DNA of 64,000 bases from Clostridium sp. Lineage in GTDB: Bacteria > Bacillota > Clostridia > Clostridiales > Clostridiaceae. The position numbers and the translations under genes are program-made. Positions within the stretch are counted from its first letter, which is position 1; each line of letters starts with the position of its first letter. The notes beneath the pieces were generated by a model, which was not told where the DNA came from, did not search any database, and saw nothing but the letters and a program-made list of their open reading frames with translations. Positions 2,168 through 57,130 of this stretch are shown in pieces. The DNA is taken from contig NZ_JBOFYU010000035.1 in NCBI RefSeq assembly GCF_051654825.1, forward strand, positions 2,081 through 66,080, in the 5' to 3' direction.

Positions 2168-2230
2168 CTAAAATTCACTTAAACAGATTTATTCTATACC
2201 TATAGCATATAATAAACCATTAAACTACTA

Positions 2231-2340
2231 CCTTCTTTCATCCAGACTATACTGTCGGCTTCGGAATTTAACCGAATCATACTATTTCTAGCTCGCGGGC
2301 TTTACCGCCGGTGGGGAATCTCGCCCCGCCCTGAAGATAT
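2231..2340 (-). ncRNA. FMN riboswitch (RFN element)
   Basis: Minus strand TCTTCAGGGCGGGGCGAGATTCCCCACCGGCGGTAAAGCCCGCGAG...AGCCGACAGTATAGTCTGGATGAAAGAAG matches the RFN consensus. Confidence 0.96.
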
Positions 2341-2356
2341 ATTAAATTATAGTCCC

Positions 2357-7883: not shown

Positions 7884-10400
7884 TTATACTTCCCTACCGC
7901 AGCAGTTCTTATACTTTTTACCGCTTCCACAACTACATAAGTCGTTTCTTCCAGCAGTTTCTTCTTTTCTTACAGGTTGCTTTTTAGCATCTGTTCCTTC
8001 ACCGCCACCATGGCTAGCTCCAGTTTCTTCTGCAACTCTTTCTCTTTCAACTGGTCTTTCAGCTTTAAGATGGAATAAGAATTTAACGGTTTCAATTTTT
8101 ATCCCTTCAATCATTTCCTCAAACATTGTACTACCTTCCATTTGGTATGCTTGAGTAGGATCTATTTGCTTGTATGCTCTTAATCCAATTCCTTGCTTTA
8201 AATGATCCATGTTATCTATATGAGCCATCCATTTTTGGTCAACAACTCTTAATAAAATAACTCTTTCAACTTCTCTAAATTGTTCTTCACCAAACTCTAA
8301 TTCTTTACCTCTATATACTTCTAATAATAAATTAGATATCTTTTCTATCATTTCCTCGTTAGATAAATCAATTAAATCTTCAACTGTAAATCTTCCATGA
8401 GGTAAACATAAGTCTTCAAGATATTGAATCATCTTCTTTATTTCTTCTTCATAATTATCTTCAATTCCATCTAAATGAGCTTTAACTGCATCTGAAACTA
8501 CTTCTATTATCATAGATTCAATTTGTTCTTTAAGGTTTTTACCTTCTAGAACTTCTGCTCTTTGTCTATAAATAACTTCTCTTTGCATATTCATAACATC
8601 ATCATATCCGATAAGGTTCTTTCTTATATCAAAGTTGTTACCTTCAACTTTCTTTTGAGCATTTTCTAAAGCTCTACTTACCATTTTATGATCAATAGCT
8701 TCATCATCTTCTAATCCTAGTTTTTCCATAAGCCCTTGAATCTTTTCTGATCCAAATATTCTCATTAAATCATCTTCTAATGATATGAAGAATGTTGATG
8801 CTCCTGGATCACCTTGACGTCCTGCTCTACCTCTTAACTGATTATCTATTCTTCTTGATTCATGTCTTTCAGTACCAATAATTTTAAGTCCGCCAGCTTC
8901 TCTAACACCTTCACCTAGCTTTATATCCGTACCTCTACCAGCCATATTTGTAGCTATAGTAACCATTCCAAATTCACCAGCATGAGTAATTATCTCTGCT
9001 TCTTGTTCATGGTATTTAGCATTAAGCACTTGATGCTTAACCCCTCTTTTCTTTAATAAGCTTGAAATATATTCTGACTTTTCAATACTTACAGTACCAA
9101 CTAAAACTGGTTGACCCTTTTTATTAGCTTCTATTATTTCTTCAACAATAGCATTGTACTTACCTTTTGCATTTTTATAAATTAAATCAGTATTATCTAT
9201 TCTTGCTACTGGTCTATGTGTAGGCACAACTATAACGTCTAAAGAATAAATTTCTCTAAATTCATTTTCTTCTGTTAATGCTGTTCCTGTCATTCCTGAT
9301 AACTTTTCATACATTCTGAAATAATTTTGGAATGTTATTGTTGCTAAAGTTTTAGATTCTCTTTCAATCTTAACTCCTTCTTTAGCTTCAATTGCTTGGT
9401 GAAGACCATCTGAATATCTTCTACCTTCCATAAGTCTACCTGTAAATTCATCAACTATAATAACTTGATCATCTTTTACCATGTAGTCTTTATCTAATTT
9501 CATAGTGTAGTTTGCTTTTAAAGCTTGTGTTATATAATGTTGTAATTCTAAATGTTCAGCATCTGCATAGTTATCTATTCCAAATGCTCTTTCTGCTCTA
9601 GCTATCCCATCTTCTGTTAGCATAACTGCATTAGCTTTTTCATCTATAGTGAAATCTCTTTCTGCTAACAGCTGTTTTACAAAGTTATCTGCAACATTGT
9701 AGAACTTAGTTGATTTTTCTCCAGCTCCTGAAATTATAAGTGGAGTTCTAGCTTCATCTATAAGGATTGAGTCAACTTCATCAACTACAGCAAAGTTTAA
9801 TTCTCTTTGTACTCTTTCCTCTTTATAAATAACCATGTTATCTCTTAAATAATCAAAACCAAATTCATTATTAGTTCCATAAGTAATGTCTGAGCCATAA
9901 GCTGCTCTTCTTTCATCAGGAGTTAATCCATGAACTATACAACCTGATGTTAATCCTAAGAAACTATATAATCTTCCCATTTCTTCTTGGTCTCTTTTTG
10001 CAAGGTAATCATTAACAGTAATTAAATGAACCCCTTTACCAGTAAGAGCATTTAAATATAAAGGAAGTGTTGCAACTAATGTTTTACCTTCCCCTGTTTT
10101 CATTTCAGCTATTCTTCCTTGATGTAATACCATTCCACCAATTAATTGAACTCTGTAATGTCTCATTCCAAGAACTCTTTTGGAAGCTTCTCTACATACA
10201 GCAAAAGCTTCTGGTAATATGTGATCTAATGATTCACCTTCTGATATTCTCTTTTTAAACTCTTCCGTTTTTCCTCTTAGTTCATCATCAGAAAGCTTTT
10301 GCATATCTGCTTCTAATGCTTCAACTTTATCTGCCGTTTTTTGTAATCTTTTTACTTCTTTCTCACTATACGTCCCAAATATTTTTTCTAAGAATCCCAT
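7884..10400 (-). CDS. secA: Preprotein translocase ATPase SecA
   Basis: [39 protein letters not shown]-terminal [14 protein letters not shown]. Confidence 0.98.
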
Positions 10401-10582
10401 ATTTCTTATCCTTCCAATCGTATCTTATTTTGCGTAAATTTTATACCTTTAAGAAACCATTTCTTTCTTTGTATAAATTATACCATTTTCACCCTTATAA
10501 GTTCAAGAAAATAACATAAATAACATTCTTAATAAAAAATGAAGTGCATAAACACTTCATTTTTTATTTATACTTATAAACT

Positions 10583-11113
10583 TTATATATATTCAGGTTC
10601 TAACAAACCATAATCTCCATCTTTTCTTTTATACATAACACATAATTTATTTTCATCTGAATCTTGATATACAAAGAAATTATGTCCTAATAATTCCATT
10701 TGTAAAACTGCTTCATCTGATGACATTGGCTTTATGCCAAATCTTTTTACCTTAACAAGCTTTCCATCATTTTTATCTTGTTCAATAGCAACTTCATCTA
10801 AACCATGGAATCTTAATGATTCATTATTTCTTCTTGATAGTTTAGTTCTTTGCTTTCTTATTTGTCTTTCTAGCTTTTGTTCCACTAAGTCAATAGATTT
10901 ATACATATCATCAGTATGTTCTTCAGCTCGTAATATAACTCCATTAAAAGGTATTGTTACCTCTACTTTTTGTCTGTTCTTTTGTACTGATAGTGTAGCC
11001 TTAGCTTCAATTTCAGGTGAGAAGTATCTGCTAATTTTTGAAATCTTTTTTTCTACCATTTCTTTTATCGCTGGTGTTAAATCAATATTTTTTGCTATTA
11101 CTGTGACTTTCAT
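10583..11113 (-). CDS. hpf: Long-form ribosome hibernation promoting factor
   Basis: DMYKSID...KLERQIRK.RTK and C-terminal KPM..DEAVLQMELLGH.FF. Confidence 0.95.
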   Translation of the reverse strand: MKVTVIAKNIDLTPAIKEMVEKKISKISRYFSPEIEAKATLSVQKNRQKVEVTIPFNGVILRAEEHTDDMYKSIDLVEQKLERQIRKQRTKLSRRNNESLRFHGLDEVAIEQDKNDGKLVKVKRFGIKPMSSDEAVLQMELLGHNFFVYQDSDENKLCVMYKRKDGDYGLLEPEYI

Positions 11114-11188
11114 AATAAGGTCATCCCCTCTCTTTAAGTTCTAAGCCTAGCTTAGAAGATTTCAAATATATATCTATTCCTTACTTAT

Positions 11189-11217
11189 ATTATACTATTA
11201 GAAAACGATTAAATCAA
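11189..11217 (-). promoter_or_regulatory. SigA promoter of hpf
   Basis: TTGATT-17 nt-TATAAT. Confidence 0.7.
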
Positions 11218-11229
11218 TATTATTAATTT

Positions 11230-11244
11230 AATTTTCTGAATATT
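11230..11244. promoter_or_regulatory. Putative CodY box upstream of the hpf promoter
   Basis: AATTTTCTGAATATT, one mismatch to AATTTTCWGAAAATT. Confidence 0.55.
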
Positions 11245-11272
11245 ATTTGTAATTTCTTCTATCTTTTTTCTT

Positions 11273-11313
11273 AAAAAGCAAGAAGACTATTAACTTACGT
11301 TAATAGTCTTCTT
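11273..11313 (-). terminator. Intrinsic terminator of the raiA RNA
   Basis: 15-bp perfect stem AAGAAGACTATTAAC/GTTAATAGTCTTCTT, then GCTTTTT on the minus strand. Confidence 0.85.
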
Positions 11314-11315
11314 AT

Positions 11316-11519
11316 AAAGCTAGCTGACCTGGATTTTGACCCCACACTCGCCTACTGGAGCTTTTGCTACCCGGACTTAACCTCTCACTACTCACACTCT
11401 CAACCTAAGTTGGTAGGACTAACATCTATACCGCACCGTGATCATTAGAATCTTTGCCTAACTTACGTGGATCGTTTCGCCTGCGACTGGCATCGACTTT
11501 CATCCACAGACCTAGCTTT
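11316..11519 (-). ncRNA. raiA: raiA motif structured non-coding RNA, about 204 nt
   Basis: GC-enriched island closed by AAAGCTAG/CTAGCTTT; conserved segments GAAAGTCGATGCCAGTCGCAGGC, ATCCACGTAAG, GGCGAGTGTGGGGTCAAA; typical position between comFC and hpf. Confidence 0.9.
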
Positions 11520-11527
11520 ATATAAAT

Positions 11528-11555
11528 ATTATATCTCACTTTTTGCAACTGTCAA
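11528..11555 (-). promoter_or_regulatory. SigA promoter for the raiA RNA, inside the comFC 3' end
   Basis: TTGACA-16 nt-TATAAT ending 8 nt before the RNA's first stem. Confidence 0.75.
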
Positions 11556-12176
11556 TACATTTATTGTACAACCTTCAATCTTTTCTAACATACTTTTACA
11601 CTCTTTAACTGTATATCCAGTTGTAACCACATCATCTATTAATATTATTGATTTTCCTATCAAATATTTTTCATCTTTAACAGAAAATACCCCTTTTACA
11701 TTTTCCGATCGCTCTTCTTTTGATAATGTTTTTTGTTCCTTTGTATCTTTTATTTTAATTATCCCGTTATAACATTTCATATTATATCTTTCTGCTATTA
11801 TTTTACCCATAAATTCACATTGATTAAATCCTCTCTTTTTAAAGGACTTTTTACTTAATGGTACGTACATTACTAAATCTGCTTTAATATTATTTTCATT
11901 TATTAGCTCACATAAATACTCTCCAAGTATGCGTCCTGCTAAAAAGTTTTTTTCATACTTAAAGGATAAAATCAAACTTCTGATAGTTTTTCCGTAAAAT
12001 GCGTATGATTTTATTTCACCATTACATTTAACTCTTTGTATTTTTCCTTTGCATCTATTGCATATTCCTATATTATCTCCCTCTAAGCAAGATATACACT
12101 TATCATCAGGAGGATAAATAATGTCTAATAATTGATTAATAACTAATTTAATTATTTTAATAATCCCTTTTCCCAT
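11529..12176 (-). CDS. comFC: ComF/ComFC family phosphoribosyltransferase-fold protein
   Basis: C..C/C..C zinc ribbon, KRGFNQ, ILIDDVVTTGYT. Confidence 0.9.
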   Translation of the reverse strand: MGKGIIKIIKLVINQLLDIIYPPDDKCISCLEGDNIGICNRCKGKIQRVKCNGEIKSYAFYGKTIRSLILSFKYEKNFLAGRILGEYLCELINENNIKADLVMYVPLSKKSFKKRGFNQCEFMGKIIAERYNMKCYNGIIKIKDTKEQKTLSKEERSENVKGVFSVKDEKYLIGKSIILIDDVVTTGYTVKECKSMLEKIEGCTINVLTVAKSEI

Positions 12177-13165
12177 ACTTTTTTGTTAAAATCTCTAGCC
12201 ATACCTTTTACCTTATCCATATTTTCAGATATGTCTTTTGATACCATCAGTACTTCTCCAGAGACTTTATTTCCTTTTCCAACCTCCGCACACATAAAAA
12301 TCATCTTTTTATAAGAATAAGAAATATCATCTGCAAATAATATTACTATACTCATATCAGTAATGTATTCAATATAGTTTTCCACATAGTTACTCACAAT
12401 AAATAATGATTTATCCTTTATCTTTAATAATCCATCTATATCTTTAGTGCATGAATCCCTATTTAATCTTACTACCTTGGTTCCAGAAATATTTAATTTT
12501 TCTGAATAGTAACTATAAATACTTTTTGATTTTTCTTCTGTTGGTGCTAATATTAATACAGTCTTTTTATTATCTCTAAACCATTTTAAATAATCATAAA
12601 GACTATACGGAATATCCTCATCTAATTTAATTCTAGTTGATATTATTCTTGGCTCTACAAACGGTCTATTGGATTGTAATTCTGAAACTTCTATACGTTC
12701 CCCTAATGTTACAACTTTTTCTATTGAGTATAATATTATCCTTTTGCTATATAAATACATAGCTTCTATAAGCTCTAATAATTCTTCTTTTCCTACATAA
12801 GAAAAACTACTAATATCATCAATTATGCACAAGTCATAATATCCTCTTATATTTATTGCATTTTTAAAGCTAGTAAATATTATTTGTACATCTTCTACTC
12901 CCTTTTCTAAATAAGAATATGTGACATTCTTGTTTGTTAATTTTATGTTGTTTATCAAATTAATATTTGATTTATTTTTTCCCCATATATATAATACTTT
13001 TCCACCATTTCTTAATAGTTCATTTATTATGCTAGAATAAATAATTGAACTATTATATGGAGTGCTTATTATAGTTAACATTTTTGATTTTCTTAAATAC
13101 CATTTATTTATCTTAGTAACACATGTTGCAAATTCTTTATGATTAATTACATTCTCATATCTCAT
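12152..13165 (-). CDS. ComFA-like degenerate SF2 helicase-fold protein
   Basis: Position upstream of comFC; IIDD and PFVEPRI segments; no Walker A motif. Confidence 0.55.
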   Translation of the reverse strand: MRYENVINHKEFATCVTKINKWYLRKSKMLTIISTPYNSSIIYSSIINELLRNGGKVLYIWGKNKSNINLINNIKLTNKNVTYSYLEKGVEDVQIIFTSFKNAINIRGYYDLCIIDDISSFSYVGKEELLELIEAMYLYSKRIILYSIEKVVTLGERIEVSELQSNRPFVEPRIISTRIKLDEDIPYSLYDYLKWFRDNKKTVLILAPTEEKSKSIYSYYSEKLNISGTKVVRLNRDSCTKDIDGLLKIKDKSLFIVSNYVENYIEYITDMSIVILFADDISYSYKKMIFMCAEVGKGNKVSGEVLMVSKDISENMDKVKGMARDFNKKVWEKGLLK

Positions 13166-13180
13166 TAGCCCACTCCTTGT

Positions 13181-15409
13181 TTATTCGCTAAAAATATTAT
13201 TCGATGTAATCTCTAATATTCTATCCTTTAAAGAAGAATATCTATCCATACTTCTAGTATTAGATACCATATATTTTAATGCCTTCGGAATTCCTACAAC
13301 TACCACTAACTCTTTTGCTCTAGTTATTCCTGTGTATAACAAATTTTTATTCATTAAAAATGGTGAACCCATAAATGCAGGCATAATTATTACTTTAAAT
13401 TCACTTCCTTGGCTTTTATGAATAGTTATTGCATAGGCTAATTCTAATTCATCTAAATATATATAATCATAAACAACCTTTCTTTCATCATCAAAGATTA
13501 CTGTAAAGTTTTTTTCTGATTCATTTATACTTTCTATAAAGCCCATATCTCCATTAAATACACCTACACCTTCATTTTCTCCATTTCCCTTAATCCTTAA
13601 CCACTTTAGCGAATAATTATTTTTAGTTTGCATAACCTTATCGCCTTCTCTAAAAATCATTTCCTTTAACTTCTTTTCTTTTTTAGTAGGAGATTCAGGG
13701 TTTAATATTTCTTGTAACCTATTATTTAAATTTTGTACTCCTAGATCACCTTTTCTAGTTGGAGTTAAAATTTGAATATCCTTTAGTTTATCCCATTTGC
13801 TATTAAATTTAGGAAGCCTTCTATTAATTAAATCTACTACAGTGTATATTATAGAATCATATTCTTCCTTTACCTCAAAGAAAAAATCACCTTGCTTTTT
13901 ATTTAATTCAGGCATTTCCCCATTATTTATCTTATGCGCATTTGTTACAATCATACTCTCTTTTCCTTGCCTAAAAATATCCTTAAGCCTAACCACTTTA
14001 ATAAAATTACTTTCTATTAAATCCTTAAGAACATTACCTGCTCCAACCGATGGAAGCTGATCAACATCTCCAACAATTATAACCCTAGTTCCAAGCTTTA
14101 TTGCTTTTAAAAGGTTTTGCATAAGCATTATATCTATCATAGATGCTTCATCAATTATAACTACATCTCCTTCTAATGGTGATGACTCTCCCTTACCAAA
14201 AAATGAGTTTTCTTCTTCACTTACACCCATTTCTAATAATCTATGTATAGTTTTAGCTTCTCTTCCTGTGGATTCAGTCATTCTTTTAGCTGCTCTTCCT
14301 GTAGGTGCTGCTAAAAGCACTTTCATTCCATTATTTTCATATATTTCTATTATGGCTTTTATTATAGTTGTCTTTCCTGTCCCTGGACCACCGGTGATTA
14401 TCTCTATTCCACTTTCAAAAGCACCTAAAATAGCTTCTCTTTGAGATGGCGCAAAATTTATTTTGTTTTTTTGTTCAAAAGCACCTATTTCAAATTCAAC
14501 ATCAGAATTTATAGTTCTAAAGTTTTCTATACTTAATGTAACTATCTTATTTGTCACACCTAACTCGCAGTAATAGTATGGTAATAAAAATACACCTTCT
14601 ATTTCTCCTATCTTTTCAATTTTAATTTTTCCTTCTAACGCAGAATTATATATATTTTCCTCAACTAATTTAGCGCTTACCATTAAAACATCCGAAACTT
14701 CCACTATTAATTTTTCCTTAGGCATAAAGGTATTTCCTGATGATGAAAACTGATTTAATACATATCTTATTCCACTTTGAACTCTAAATTGAGAAGTATT
14801 TTCTATTCCTAAACTCTTTGCTATCCTATCTGCTGTTATAAATCCAATTCCTGATATATCATCACACAAAACATAAGGATTATCTTCAACTACTTTTCTA
14901 GCTTGAGCTCCATATTTTTTATATATTTTTATACACTGATTGGTTGTCATACCATGACCTTGAAAATATATCATTATATCTTTCAAATCTTTTTGCTCTA
15001 TATATGATTCATATATTATAGCAAACTTCTTTTCTCCGATGCCCTCTATCTCTTGAAGTTTTTCTATATTGTTATCTAATATGTCTAATGTATTTTCCCC
15101 AAACTTTTCAACTATCTTTTTAGCTGTAACAGGTCCTATTCCATGAATTATACCTGTACTTAAATACTTCTCTATTCCCTCTATAGAATTAGGAAGAACT
15201 TCTTCATATTCTTCTATATTGAATTGACGTCCAAACTGTTTATGAAGAACCCATTGGCCCTTTAGCTTTACATGTTGCCCTTCTTTCAAAAACGGCACTA
15301 CTCCCACTGCATTTATAACTTCTTTATTAACTATAATTTTAGATACTACATATCCTGTGTCATCACTTTTAAATACAATAGATTCTACTATCCCATTTAT
15401 AGTTTCCAT
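13181..15409 (-). CDS. recD2: ATP-dependent RecD2 helicase
   Basis: HhH repeats, ITGGPGTGKTT, IIDEASM, YAITIHKSQGSEF, LYTGITRAK. Confidence 0.95.
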   Translation of the reverse strand: METINGIVESIVFKSDDTGYVVSKIIVNKEVINAVGVVPFLKEGQHVKLKGQWVLHKQFGRQFNIEEYEEVLPNSIEGIEKYLSTGIIHGIGPVTAKKIVEKFGENTLDILDNNIEKLQEIEGIGEKKFAIIYESYIEQKDLKDIMIYFQGHGMTTNQCIKIYKKYGAQARKVVEDNPYVLCDDISGIGFITADRIAKSLGIENTSQFRVQSGIRYVLNQFSSSGNTFMPKEKLIVEVSDVLMVSAKLVEENIYNSALEGKIKIEKIGEIEGVFLLPYYYCELGVTNKIVTLSIENFRTINSDVEFEIGAFEQKNKINFAPSQREAILGAFESGIEIITGGPGTGKTTIIKAIIEIYENNGMKVLLAAPTGRAAKRMTESTGREAKTIHRLLEMGVSEEENSFFGKGESSPLEGDVVIIDEASMIDIMLMQNLLKAIKLGTRVIIVGDVDQLPSVGAGNVLKDLIESNFIKVVRLKDIFRQGKESMIVTNAHKINNGEMPELNKKQGDFFFEVKEEYDSIIYTVVDLINRRLPKFNSKWDKLKDIQILTPTRKGDLGVQNLNNRLQEILNPESPTKKEKKLKEMIFREGDKVMQTKNNYSLKWLRIKGNGENEGVGVFNGDMGFIESINESEKNFTVIFDDERKVVYDYIYLDELELAYAITIHKSQGSEFKVIIMPAFMGSPFLMNKNLLYTGITRAKELVVVVGIPKALKYMVSNTRSMDRYSSLKDRILEITSNNIFSE

Positions 15410-18023: not shown

Positions 18024-18126
18024 TTCTTATCTTGCAAATATAATTTGCTGGAATTGGCACCTTTGTGATATTCACAGGTTGCCGGGTTTCATAGGGCCCT
18101 TTCCCTCCACCTCTCTGGATAAGAAC
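18024..18126 (-). ncRNA. SAM-I (S-box) riboswitch
   Basis: TCTTATCCAGAGAGGTGGAGGGAAAGGGCCCTATGAAACCCGGCAACC...GGTGCCAATTCC...GATAAGA upstream of metK. Confidence 0.97.
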
Positions 18127-18356: not shown

Positions 18357-18441
18357 TGGTGGGGGAGGACGGATTCGAACCATCGAAACGAAACGTAACA
18401 GATTTACAGTCTGCCCCCTTTGGCCACTCGGGAACTCCCCC
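18357..18441 (-). tRNA. tRNA-Tyr(GTA)
   Basis: Cloverleaf, CTGTAAA anticodon loop, long variable arm, encoded CCA. Confidence 0.97.
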
Positions 18442-18446
18442 ATTAT

Positions 18447-18521
18447 TGGAGCTGGCAATAGGAATCGAACCTACAACCTGCTGATTACAAGTCAGCTGCT
18501 CTACCGTTGAGCCATGCCAGC
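18447..18521 (-). tRNA. tRNA-Thr(TGT)
   Basis: Cloverleaf, CTTGTAA anticodon loop, encoded CCA. Confidence 0.97.
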
Positions 18522-18547
18522 ATATTATTTGCTTTTAATTATTTAAG

Positions 18548-18623
18548 TGGTGGGCACAACAGGGATCGAACCTGTGACCCTCTGCTTGTAAGGCAGATGC
18601 TCTCCCAGCTGAGCTATGCGCCC
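18548..18623 (-). tRNA. tRNA-Val(TAC)
   Basis: Cloverleaf, CTTACAA anticodon loop, encoded CCA. Confidence 0.97.
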
Positions 18624-18637
18624 TTAAATTTATAAAA

Positions 18638-18722
18638 TGGTGGGGGAGGACGGATTCGAACCATCGAAACGAAACGTAACAGATTTACAGTCTGCCCCCT
18701 TTGGCCACTCGGGAACTCCCCC
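18638..18722 (-). tRNA. tRNA-Tyr(GTA)
   Basis: Same sequence as 18357-18441. Confidence 0.97.
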
Positions 18723-18731
18723 ATTTTATAT

Positions 18732-18806
18732 TGGAGCTGGCAATAGGAATCGAACCTACAACCTGCTGATTACAAGTCAGCTGCTCTACCGTTGAGCCAT
18801 GCCAGC
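18732..18806 (-). tRNA. tRNA-Thr(TGT)
   Basis: Same sequence as 18447-18521. Confidence 0.97.
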
Positions 18807-18823
18807 ATATTCTTAAGTTTTAA

Positions 18824-18908
18824 TGGTGGGGGAGGACGGATTCGAACCATCGAAACGAAACGTAACAGATTTACAGTCTGCCCCCTTTGGCCACTCGGGA
18901 ACTCCCCC
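18824..18908 (-). tRNA. tRNA-Tyr(GTA)
   Basis: Third copy of the same sequence. Confidence 0.97.
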
Positions 18909-47801: not shown

Positions 47802-47830
47802 TTGACACACCCCTTATCTATTAGTATAAT
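47802..47830 (+). promoter_or_regulatory. Consensus SigA promoter pointing away from pyrG
   Basis: TTGACA-17 nt-TATAAT on the plus strand. Confidence 0.7.
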
Positions 47831-57060: not shown

Positions 57061-57130
57061 ATTATACACTTATTTCCTTTTTATGTCAATCAAAATTTAC
57101 ATTTTACCACTTTTATAAGCATTTTGTCAA
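57061..57130 (-). promoter_or_regulatory. Tandem SigA promoters of veg
   Basis: TTGACA-17-TATAAT (57089-57061) and TTGACA-18-TAAAAT (57130-57101). Confidence 0.75.

Follow-up and report, generated by a model that had tools for sequence, protein, structure and literature searches.

A raiA/ModT noncoding RNA gene of Clostridium sp. with a predicted promoter inside the end of comFC

We identified a raiA/ModT noncoding RNA gene on the minus strand of a Clostridium sp. contig, within a 64-kb stretch of DNA that was analysed as a whole (hereafter, the window). The locus is very probably an orthologous, SigA-driven, trans-acting ModT gene with its own promoter in the end of the upstream gene comFC. 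Earlier studies have already described this RNA family, including its expression as a stand-alone transcript, the SigA promoter and the sizes of the isoforms. The main texts of the studies in C. acetobutylicum and C. difficile (PMC10861870, PMC11706538) make no mention of an overlap between the promoter and the comFC stop codon.

Read 5′ to 3′ along the minus strand, the locus is made up of comFC, the raiA RNA, a terminator, a promoter-like site, hpf and secA. Its features are the following:

11529-12176, minus strand: comFC, a 215-aa ORF encoding a ComF-family protein with a phosphoribosyltransferase-type domain
11550-11555, minus strand: -35 box TTGACA, formed by the comFC codons Leu (TTG) and Thr (ACA)
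11528-11533, minus strand: -10 box TATAAT, containing the comFC stop TAA (11531-11529) and the final two bases of the Ile codon before it
11521, minus strand: transcription start predicted from promoter geometry, 7 nt past the -10 box
11315-11520, minus strand: raiA motif / ModT noncoding RNA, full RF03072 model; the core, and the extent of the short isoform
11273-11314, minus strand: intrinsic terminator, a 16-bp hairpin followed by C and T5; the 3′ extension of the predicted long isoform
11189-11217, minus strand: hpf promoter-like site, TTGATT-17-TATAAT, 75 nt before the hpf ATG
10583-11113, minus strand: hpf, encoding the long-form ribosome hibernation-promoting factor

The typical synteny of raiA is present, with a ComF-family ORF upstream and a gene for long-form HPF downstream, all on one strand. 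The comFC product matched Pfam Pribosyltran with 30 bits, and its top NCBIfam match was the ComF family TIGR00201, a hit with an E-value of 4e-28 that does not reach the curated cut-off. The hpf product matched Pfam Ribosomal_S30AE and Ribosom_S30AE_C, as well as TIGR00741 with 92.7 bits, over the cut-off. These Pfam and NCBIfam profiles bear out the identities that both neighbours had received in the initial annotation, which was made from the sequence alone. The hpf gene is the "raiA" gene after which the raiA motif was named. Directly upstream of comFC lies a 337-aa ORF (12152-13165, minus strand) that overlaps the comFC start by 25 nt. At the thresholds used, neither Pfam nor NCBIfam gave a match to this ORF, which occupies the usual place of comFA. 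Further upstream, a 742-aa ORF (13181-15409) is helicase-like by eye.

The window element is a member of the raiA/ModT RNA family. Annotation with cmscan against Rfam placed RF03072 (raiA) at 11315-11520 on the minus strand, with 188.2 bits, an E-value of 4.5e-48 and a match covering positions 1-209 of the 209 positions of the model. A search with the Rfam raiA model had been proposed as a check when the element was first noticed, and its score lies above the gathering score of the family (101.3 bits), with the model matched in full length. The first description, a GC-enriched structured element of about 204 nt, also agrees with what we found at these coordinates: the closing arms AAAGCTAG (11519-11512) and CTAGCTTT (11323-11316) span 204 nt, the element is closed by AAAGCUAG / CUAGCUUU as described, and its G+C content is 47.6% against 29.3% for the 64-kb window.

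Helices of this RNA covary among relatives. Covariation was detected in 20 of the 55 predicted pairs in an alignment of 25-26 relatives, including pairs of P1 and of internal helices, and in the outer closing stem compensatory two-sided changes were seen at 8 of 9 pairs. The high Rfam score over the core segments gives indirect support to the pseudoknots PK1 and PK2 and the triangular core of the family, which the window RNA may share. P1a comprises 9 bp (UAAAGCUAG / CUAGCUUUA). In the published structure, the two ends of the RNA pair to give P1, which has a conserved length and carries GU and GGU bulges (PMC12968392). A conserved single-stranded linker, published as UUAGA(C/A)GUAA, connects PK1 and P6. 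The conserved segments GGUCUGUGG and CCAGGUCAGC are found in the window RNA. Its linker reads AUAGAUGUUA, which keeps the core UAGA-GU-A and differs from the published form at positions 1, 6 and 9. Position 1 is A in most same-genus relatives too, the changes at positions 6 and 9 are common to one relative (L024), and the change at position 6 alone occurs in another (L028). A 40-aa ORF (11426-11548) inside raiA crosses helices that covary as RNA.

The element is single-copy in its own genome. The search covered 41 genomes, the window's own among them: 40 carry exactly one raiA match, and the sole genome without a match is only 59% complete. The genome also encodes khpA (KH_KhpA-B, 87 bits) and khpB (Jag_N, 78 bits, and KH, 61 bits). 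Other structured RNAs of the window were an FMN riboswitch (2226-2342, minus strand, 113 bits), a SAM-I riboswitch (18024-18125, minus strand, 95 bits) and six tRNA genes (18360-18908, minus strand) that score as three repeated pairs.

The promoter of this RNA is written into the coding sequence of comFC. The TTGACA hexamer (11555-11550), a 16-nt spacer and the TATAAT hexamer (11533-11528) amount to 12 of 12 consensus matches, and no other perfect match was detected within 10400-12300 (1.9 kb scanned). The whole 64-kb window held 3 perfect matches, compared with 0.15 expected from shuffled sequences; the other two, both TTGACA-17-TATAAT, are located at 47802-47830 (plus strand) and 57061-57089 (minus strand). 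The comFC frame ends with GTA TTG ACA GTT GCA AAA AGT GAG ATA TAA, so that the last nine codons and the stop carry the raiA promoter. This confirms the arrangement originally read from the sequence, with TTGACA as Leu-Thr and the TAA stop within TATAAT. From the comFC stop to P1 there are 8 nt. Based on promoter geometry, raiA transcription is predicted to start at approximately position 11521, one base before model position 1 and the closing stem P1. With this start, located 7 nt downstream of the -10 box, the transcript would begin essentially with the 5′ arm of P1. One contig from an RNA run (X3), 100% identical to the window, aligns up to 11521, which is the predicted start, with 3 unaligned letters beyond.

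This overlap is conserved throughout the genus. An unbiased Rfam search of 40 relatives yielded 30 loci with flanks, of which 21, the window counted, are same-genus loci. All 21 displayed TTGACn-16-TATAAT, and in every case the comFC stop TAA falls within the -10 box. The distance from the end of this box to model position 1 is 8-10 nt in each of them, suggesting that transcription would start at or just before P1. The TTGAC of the -35 box and the complete TATAAT were invariant in these loci (21/21 for both), and the sixth base of the -35 box follows the Thr codon. We also scanned approximately 185,000 species-representative genomes for the pattern TTGAC-N17-TATAAT-N13-18-GGTCTGTGG. The scan returned 104 matches, 100 of which had an ORF with a ComFC-type C-terminus, ...L-T-x-x-x-x-x-(I/V/L)-stop, ending in the -10 box. 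These ORFs were at least 200 aa long in 92 of the 100 cases, and the remainder were mostly cut at the edge of the locus. The named records among the matches belong nearly all to Clostridium sensu stricto or Sarcina, and the species include C. perfringens, C. tertium, C. paraputrificum, C. celatum, C. baratii, C. tyrobutyricum and C. ragsdalei.

Codon usage at the end of comFC points to a constraint on the hexamers. All 21 same-genus loci encode the Leu of the -35 box with TTG, while elsewhere in the comFC genes of these loci TTG makes up 8.7% and TTA 66% of 320 Leu codons. Meanwhile, third positions of the spacer codons for Ala, Ser and Thr vary freely among the same 21 loci, with GCA, GCT, GCC and GCG used for Ala and AGT, AGC and TCT used for Ser. 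In the larger set, the third base of the Thr codon, which is position 6 of the -35 box, varies as well (ACA 52, ACT 42, ACG 3, ACC 3). The last residue of ComFC is Ile, Val or Leu, yet its codon is always NTA (ATA 86, GTA 11, TTA 3), and the stop codon is always TAA in the set of 100 ORFs. With TTG, NTA and TAA fixed and the spacer and last residue variable, conservation tracks the hexamers and not the protein. The comFC 3′ end is thus under two constraints, because the promoter sits in its coding sequence. A dual constraint of this kind had been put forward in the initial annotation, along with the synonymous-site comparison that now supports it in the 21 loci.

One relative offers what may be regarded as a natural experiment. 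At locus L005 (relative G004, 1-2600), a gene for a 203-aa multi-pass membrane protein is located on the opposite strand (748-1359) between comFC and raiA. The comFC gene ends at 612 with a different tail (...LALARAKL), and a perfect promoter is still attached to raiA, inside a 30-codon relic of a comFC-like frame that ends in ILTVNNTYI-stop. The promoter thus stayed with raiA after comFC was displaced, in agreement with a constraint on the hexamers. Loci from other families of the order present a different picture (L002, L010, L014, L017, L018, L019, L020, L022 and L027). Their comFC genes end 8-22 nt before P1 of raiA, and a consensus promoter sought at the same position was none better than 7-9 of 12 matches. 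The raiA RNA of those families may be co-transcribed with comFC, or transcribed from a non-consensus promoter.

No terminator lies between comFC and raiA; therefore, read-through of the comF operon must also yield 5′-extended raiA RNA. The overlap may also be more than compaction: a heavily used consensus SigA promoter placed on the comFC stop in every species of Clostridium sensu stricto would physically couple the two genes. RNA polymerase at the raiA promoter would block or terminate transcription of the comF operon close to its end, read-through would give 5′-extended precursors on which ribosomes end 8 nt before P1, and the output of ModT and the expression of competence genes would be antagonistic. 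We consider such coupling unlikely. If it were true, the adjacency of comFC and raiA in two phyla would reflect coupling and not a shared biochemical function.

The same proximity invites a second reading, in which raiA is mainly the 3′ tail of a comF operon transcript (recD2 / 337-aa ORF / comFC) that is released by processing at P1, with little contribution from the hexamers. The 8 nt from the comFC stop to P1 without an intervening terminator fit this reading, as do the loci of the other families, in which co-transcription is plausible for some lineages. Against it stand the 12/12 promoter of the window, the retention of this promoter in 21/21 same-genus loci with codon usage forced against the bias of the genes themselves, and the promoter that stays with raiA at L005.

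RNA data bear on this question as well. These were Logan assembled contigs, which carry no strand and lose low-coverage ends, and the runs were mostly metatranscriptomes or unlabelled. In three RNA or probable-RNA runs (X3, X4 and X5), contigs 100% identical to the window covered only 11331-11521 and did not reach into comFC, which speaks against a comF operon tail. A transcriptome with a close relative displayed a word depth of approximately 1.7e5 confined to 11321-11529. This contig pattern is consistent with a discrete and very abundant raiA RNA, although strandless contigs are also compatible with read-through. In a further metatranscriptome (X8), contigs of a related species ran at least 255 nt past both raiA ends (11315 and 11520), with a word depth of several hundred; these border-crossing contigs could stem from read-through in that relative or from DNA carry-over. 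A further point against the operon tail is the near-rRNA abundance reported for raiA RNA, since expression of competence operons is normally far lower. Published transcription start mapping and promoter alignments of relatives display a SigA promoter (PMC11706538). Taken with the points above, this makes processing from a comF transcript a very unlikely origin of the RNA, and we retain the interpretation of a ModT gene with its own promoter.

The 3′ end of this gene is marked by an intrinsic terminator. Its stem (11314-11279) has 16 pairs and a 4-nt loop and is followed by C and TTTTT (11277-11273), with a dG of -20 kcal/mol. A terminator had been annotated here with a stem of 15 bp; the hairpin and the T-run are present as described, and the stem has one pair more. 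Some transcription may continue past it towards hpf, since only 4 of the pairs are G-C and the T5 run is interrupted by C. The terminator hairpin starts at 11314, directly after the last base of the 3′ arm of P1 (11315), and in the minimum-energy fold of a 254-nt stretch P1 and the hairpin form side by side without competition. We predict from these borders raiA products of approximately 249 nt with the hairpin and approximately 207 nt without it. Several same-genus relatives have no separate hairpin, and therefore the long isoform is not universal. Among these, loci L001, L012 and L013 have a T-run directly after the 3′ arm of P1, and P1 itself may serve as the terminator stem in them, giving the short isoform only.

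Approximately 200 nt separate the raiA RNA from the hpf ATG, and this interval holds the promoter-like site TTGATT-17-TATAAT (11217-11189), in line with the separate hpf promoter originally proposed. Sites of the form TTGnnn-17/18-TAnAAT are found 44-92 nt before the hpf ATG in 14 of 21 same-genus loci, the window counted. The hpf contigs from two fish-gut metatranscriptomes (X1 and X2) stop at 11165 and 11167, approximately 150 nt short of raiA and 15-17 nt downstream of where the hpf promoter would start transcription.

These observations weigh on a third reading, in which raiA would act in cis on hpf as a leader or riboswitch, with the hairpin at 11314-11279 as a regulated terminator (expression platform). 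Such a reading is in keeping with the Rfam type label "Cis-reg; riboswitch", with the position of raiA upstream of hpf on the same strand (hpf is the downstream neighbour in 20 of 21 same-genus loci, the window counted) and with a terminator that abuts an aptamer-like fold. We rejected this very improbable reading, since the terminator stem neither overlaps nor competes with P1, about 200 nt and a separate, recurrent promoter-like site precede the hpf ATG, some relatives have another downstream gene or no hairpin, the hpf RNA contigs end well before raiA, and the orthologues act upon complementation in trans with flanking mRNA unchanged (PMC10861870, PMC11706538). The alternative already favoured in the initial annotation, a stand-alone transcript and not an hpf leader, is supported by the promoter of the RNA, the abutting terminator, the separate hpf site and the published orthologues, and this conclusion is already in the literature.

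The properties of those orthologues provide insights into what the window RNA might do. In C. acetobutylicum, raiA is an independent trans-acting transcript, and its deletion impairs sporulation and aggregation (PMC10861870). ModT of C. difficile is among the most abundant and stable RNAs. Transcription from its SigA promoter gives two isoforms, which are told apart by a 3′ hairpin, and the RNA has effects on entry into stationary phase, on c-di-GMP levels and on sporulation (PMC11706538). A SigA promoter and two isoforms were described for C. difficile, C. perfringens and P. sordellii, the C. perfringens isoforms measured approximately 210 and 240 nt in northern blots, and the C. perfringens orthologue complements a C. 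difficile mutant (PMC11706538). Knock-outs were complemented in trans, and levels of the flanking mRNAs were unchanged (PMC10861870, PMC11706538). Cryo-EM revealed that P1, whose length is conserved, protrudes from a compact core, and a KhpA-KhpB heterodimer binds the RNA (PMC12968392).

C. perfringens (L050) is a related species of Clostridium sensu stricto whose locus resembles that of the window. It displays TTGACT-16-TATAAT overlapping a comFC that ends in ...LTIAKSRI-stop, and its SigA promoter and isoforms of approximately 210 and 240 nt match the predicted 207 and 249 nt of the window. It is nevertheless another species, and its RNA differs in the variable loops P5, P7 and P8 and in three bases of the linker. 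The C. acetobutylicum RNA (Ca-raiA) belongs, like that of the window, to the subtype of approximately 204-206 nt (without P2 in the Rfam alignment) and has comFC upstream. It is independent, abundant and trans-acting, and its cryo-EM structure displays the conserved P1 (PMC10861870, PMC12968392). However, its downstream gene is gntR where the window has hpf, and it has one isoform only and no predicted terminator nearby, whereas a strong hairpin follows P1 in the window. ModT of C. difficile 630 belongs to the same Rfam family and binds KhpA and KhpB, the genes for both of which are present in the genome of the window. However, C. difficile 630 belongs to a different taxonomic order, its transcription start is described as intergenic, while the promoter of the window is intragenic, and the downstream gene is a PTS antiterminator in place of hpf.

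Based on these findings, we postulate the following working of the locus. SigA, the housekeeping sigma factor, would read the TTGACA-16-TATAAT promoter at the end of comFC, where it covers the stop and the nine codons before it; we infer this sigma factor assignment from the hexamers. Transcription would proceed from approximately 11521 through the conserved fold of 206 nt and stop at the hairpin and U-tract ending at 11273. This would give a long isoform of approximately 249 nt and, where the terminator hairpin is lost or bypassed, a short one of approximately 207 nt. By analogy with its published orthologues, the RNA would act in trans as an abundant, stable and compactly folded molecule, would probably work as a ribonucleoprotein with KhpA and KhpB, and may influence how cells pass from growth to stationary phase, sporulate and aggregate. 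The downstream hpf would be a separate transcription unit. The 3′ end of comFC carries a double constraint, with the rare TTG as the only codon for the Leu, NTA as the only form of the last codon and TAA as the only stop.

These findings provide the correct annotation of an abundant regulatory RNA that is missed by protein-centred pipelines, and a routine Rfam scan suffices to find this copy. Their practical value is small; the identification holds no surprise for a specialist, and it brings the biochemical role of the RNA no nearer. They do have implications for genetic work, since deleting or tagging the C-terminus of ComFC in these clostridia would unknowingly remove the promoter of raiA/ModT, and published raiA motif deletions and studies of comFC must keep both effects apart. 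For the biology of the family, the locus shows cleanly how the promoter of one gene shapes the coding sequence of its neighbour, with a rare Leu codon, an NTA codon and a TAA stop fixed across approximately 100 species.
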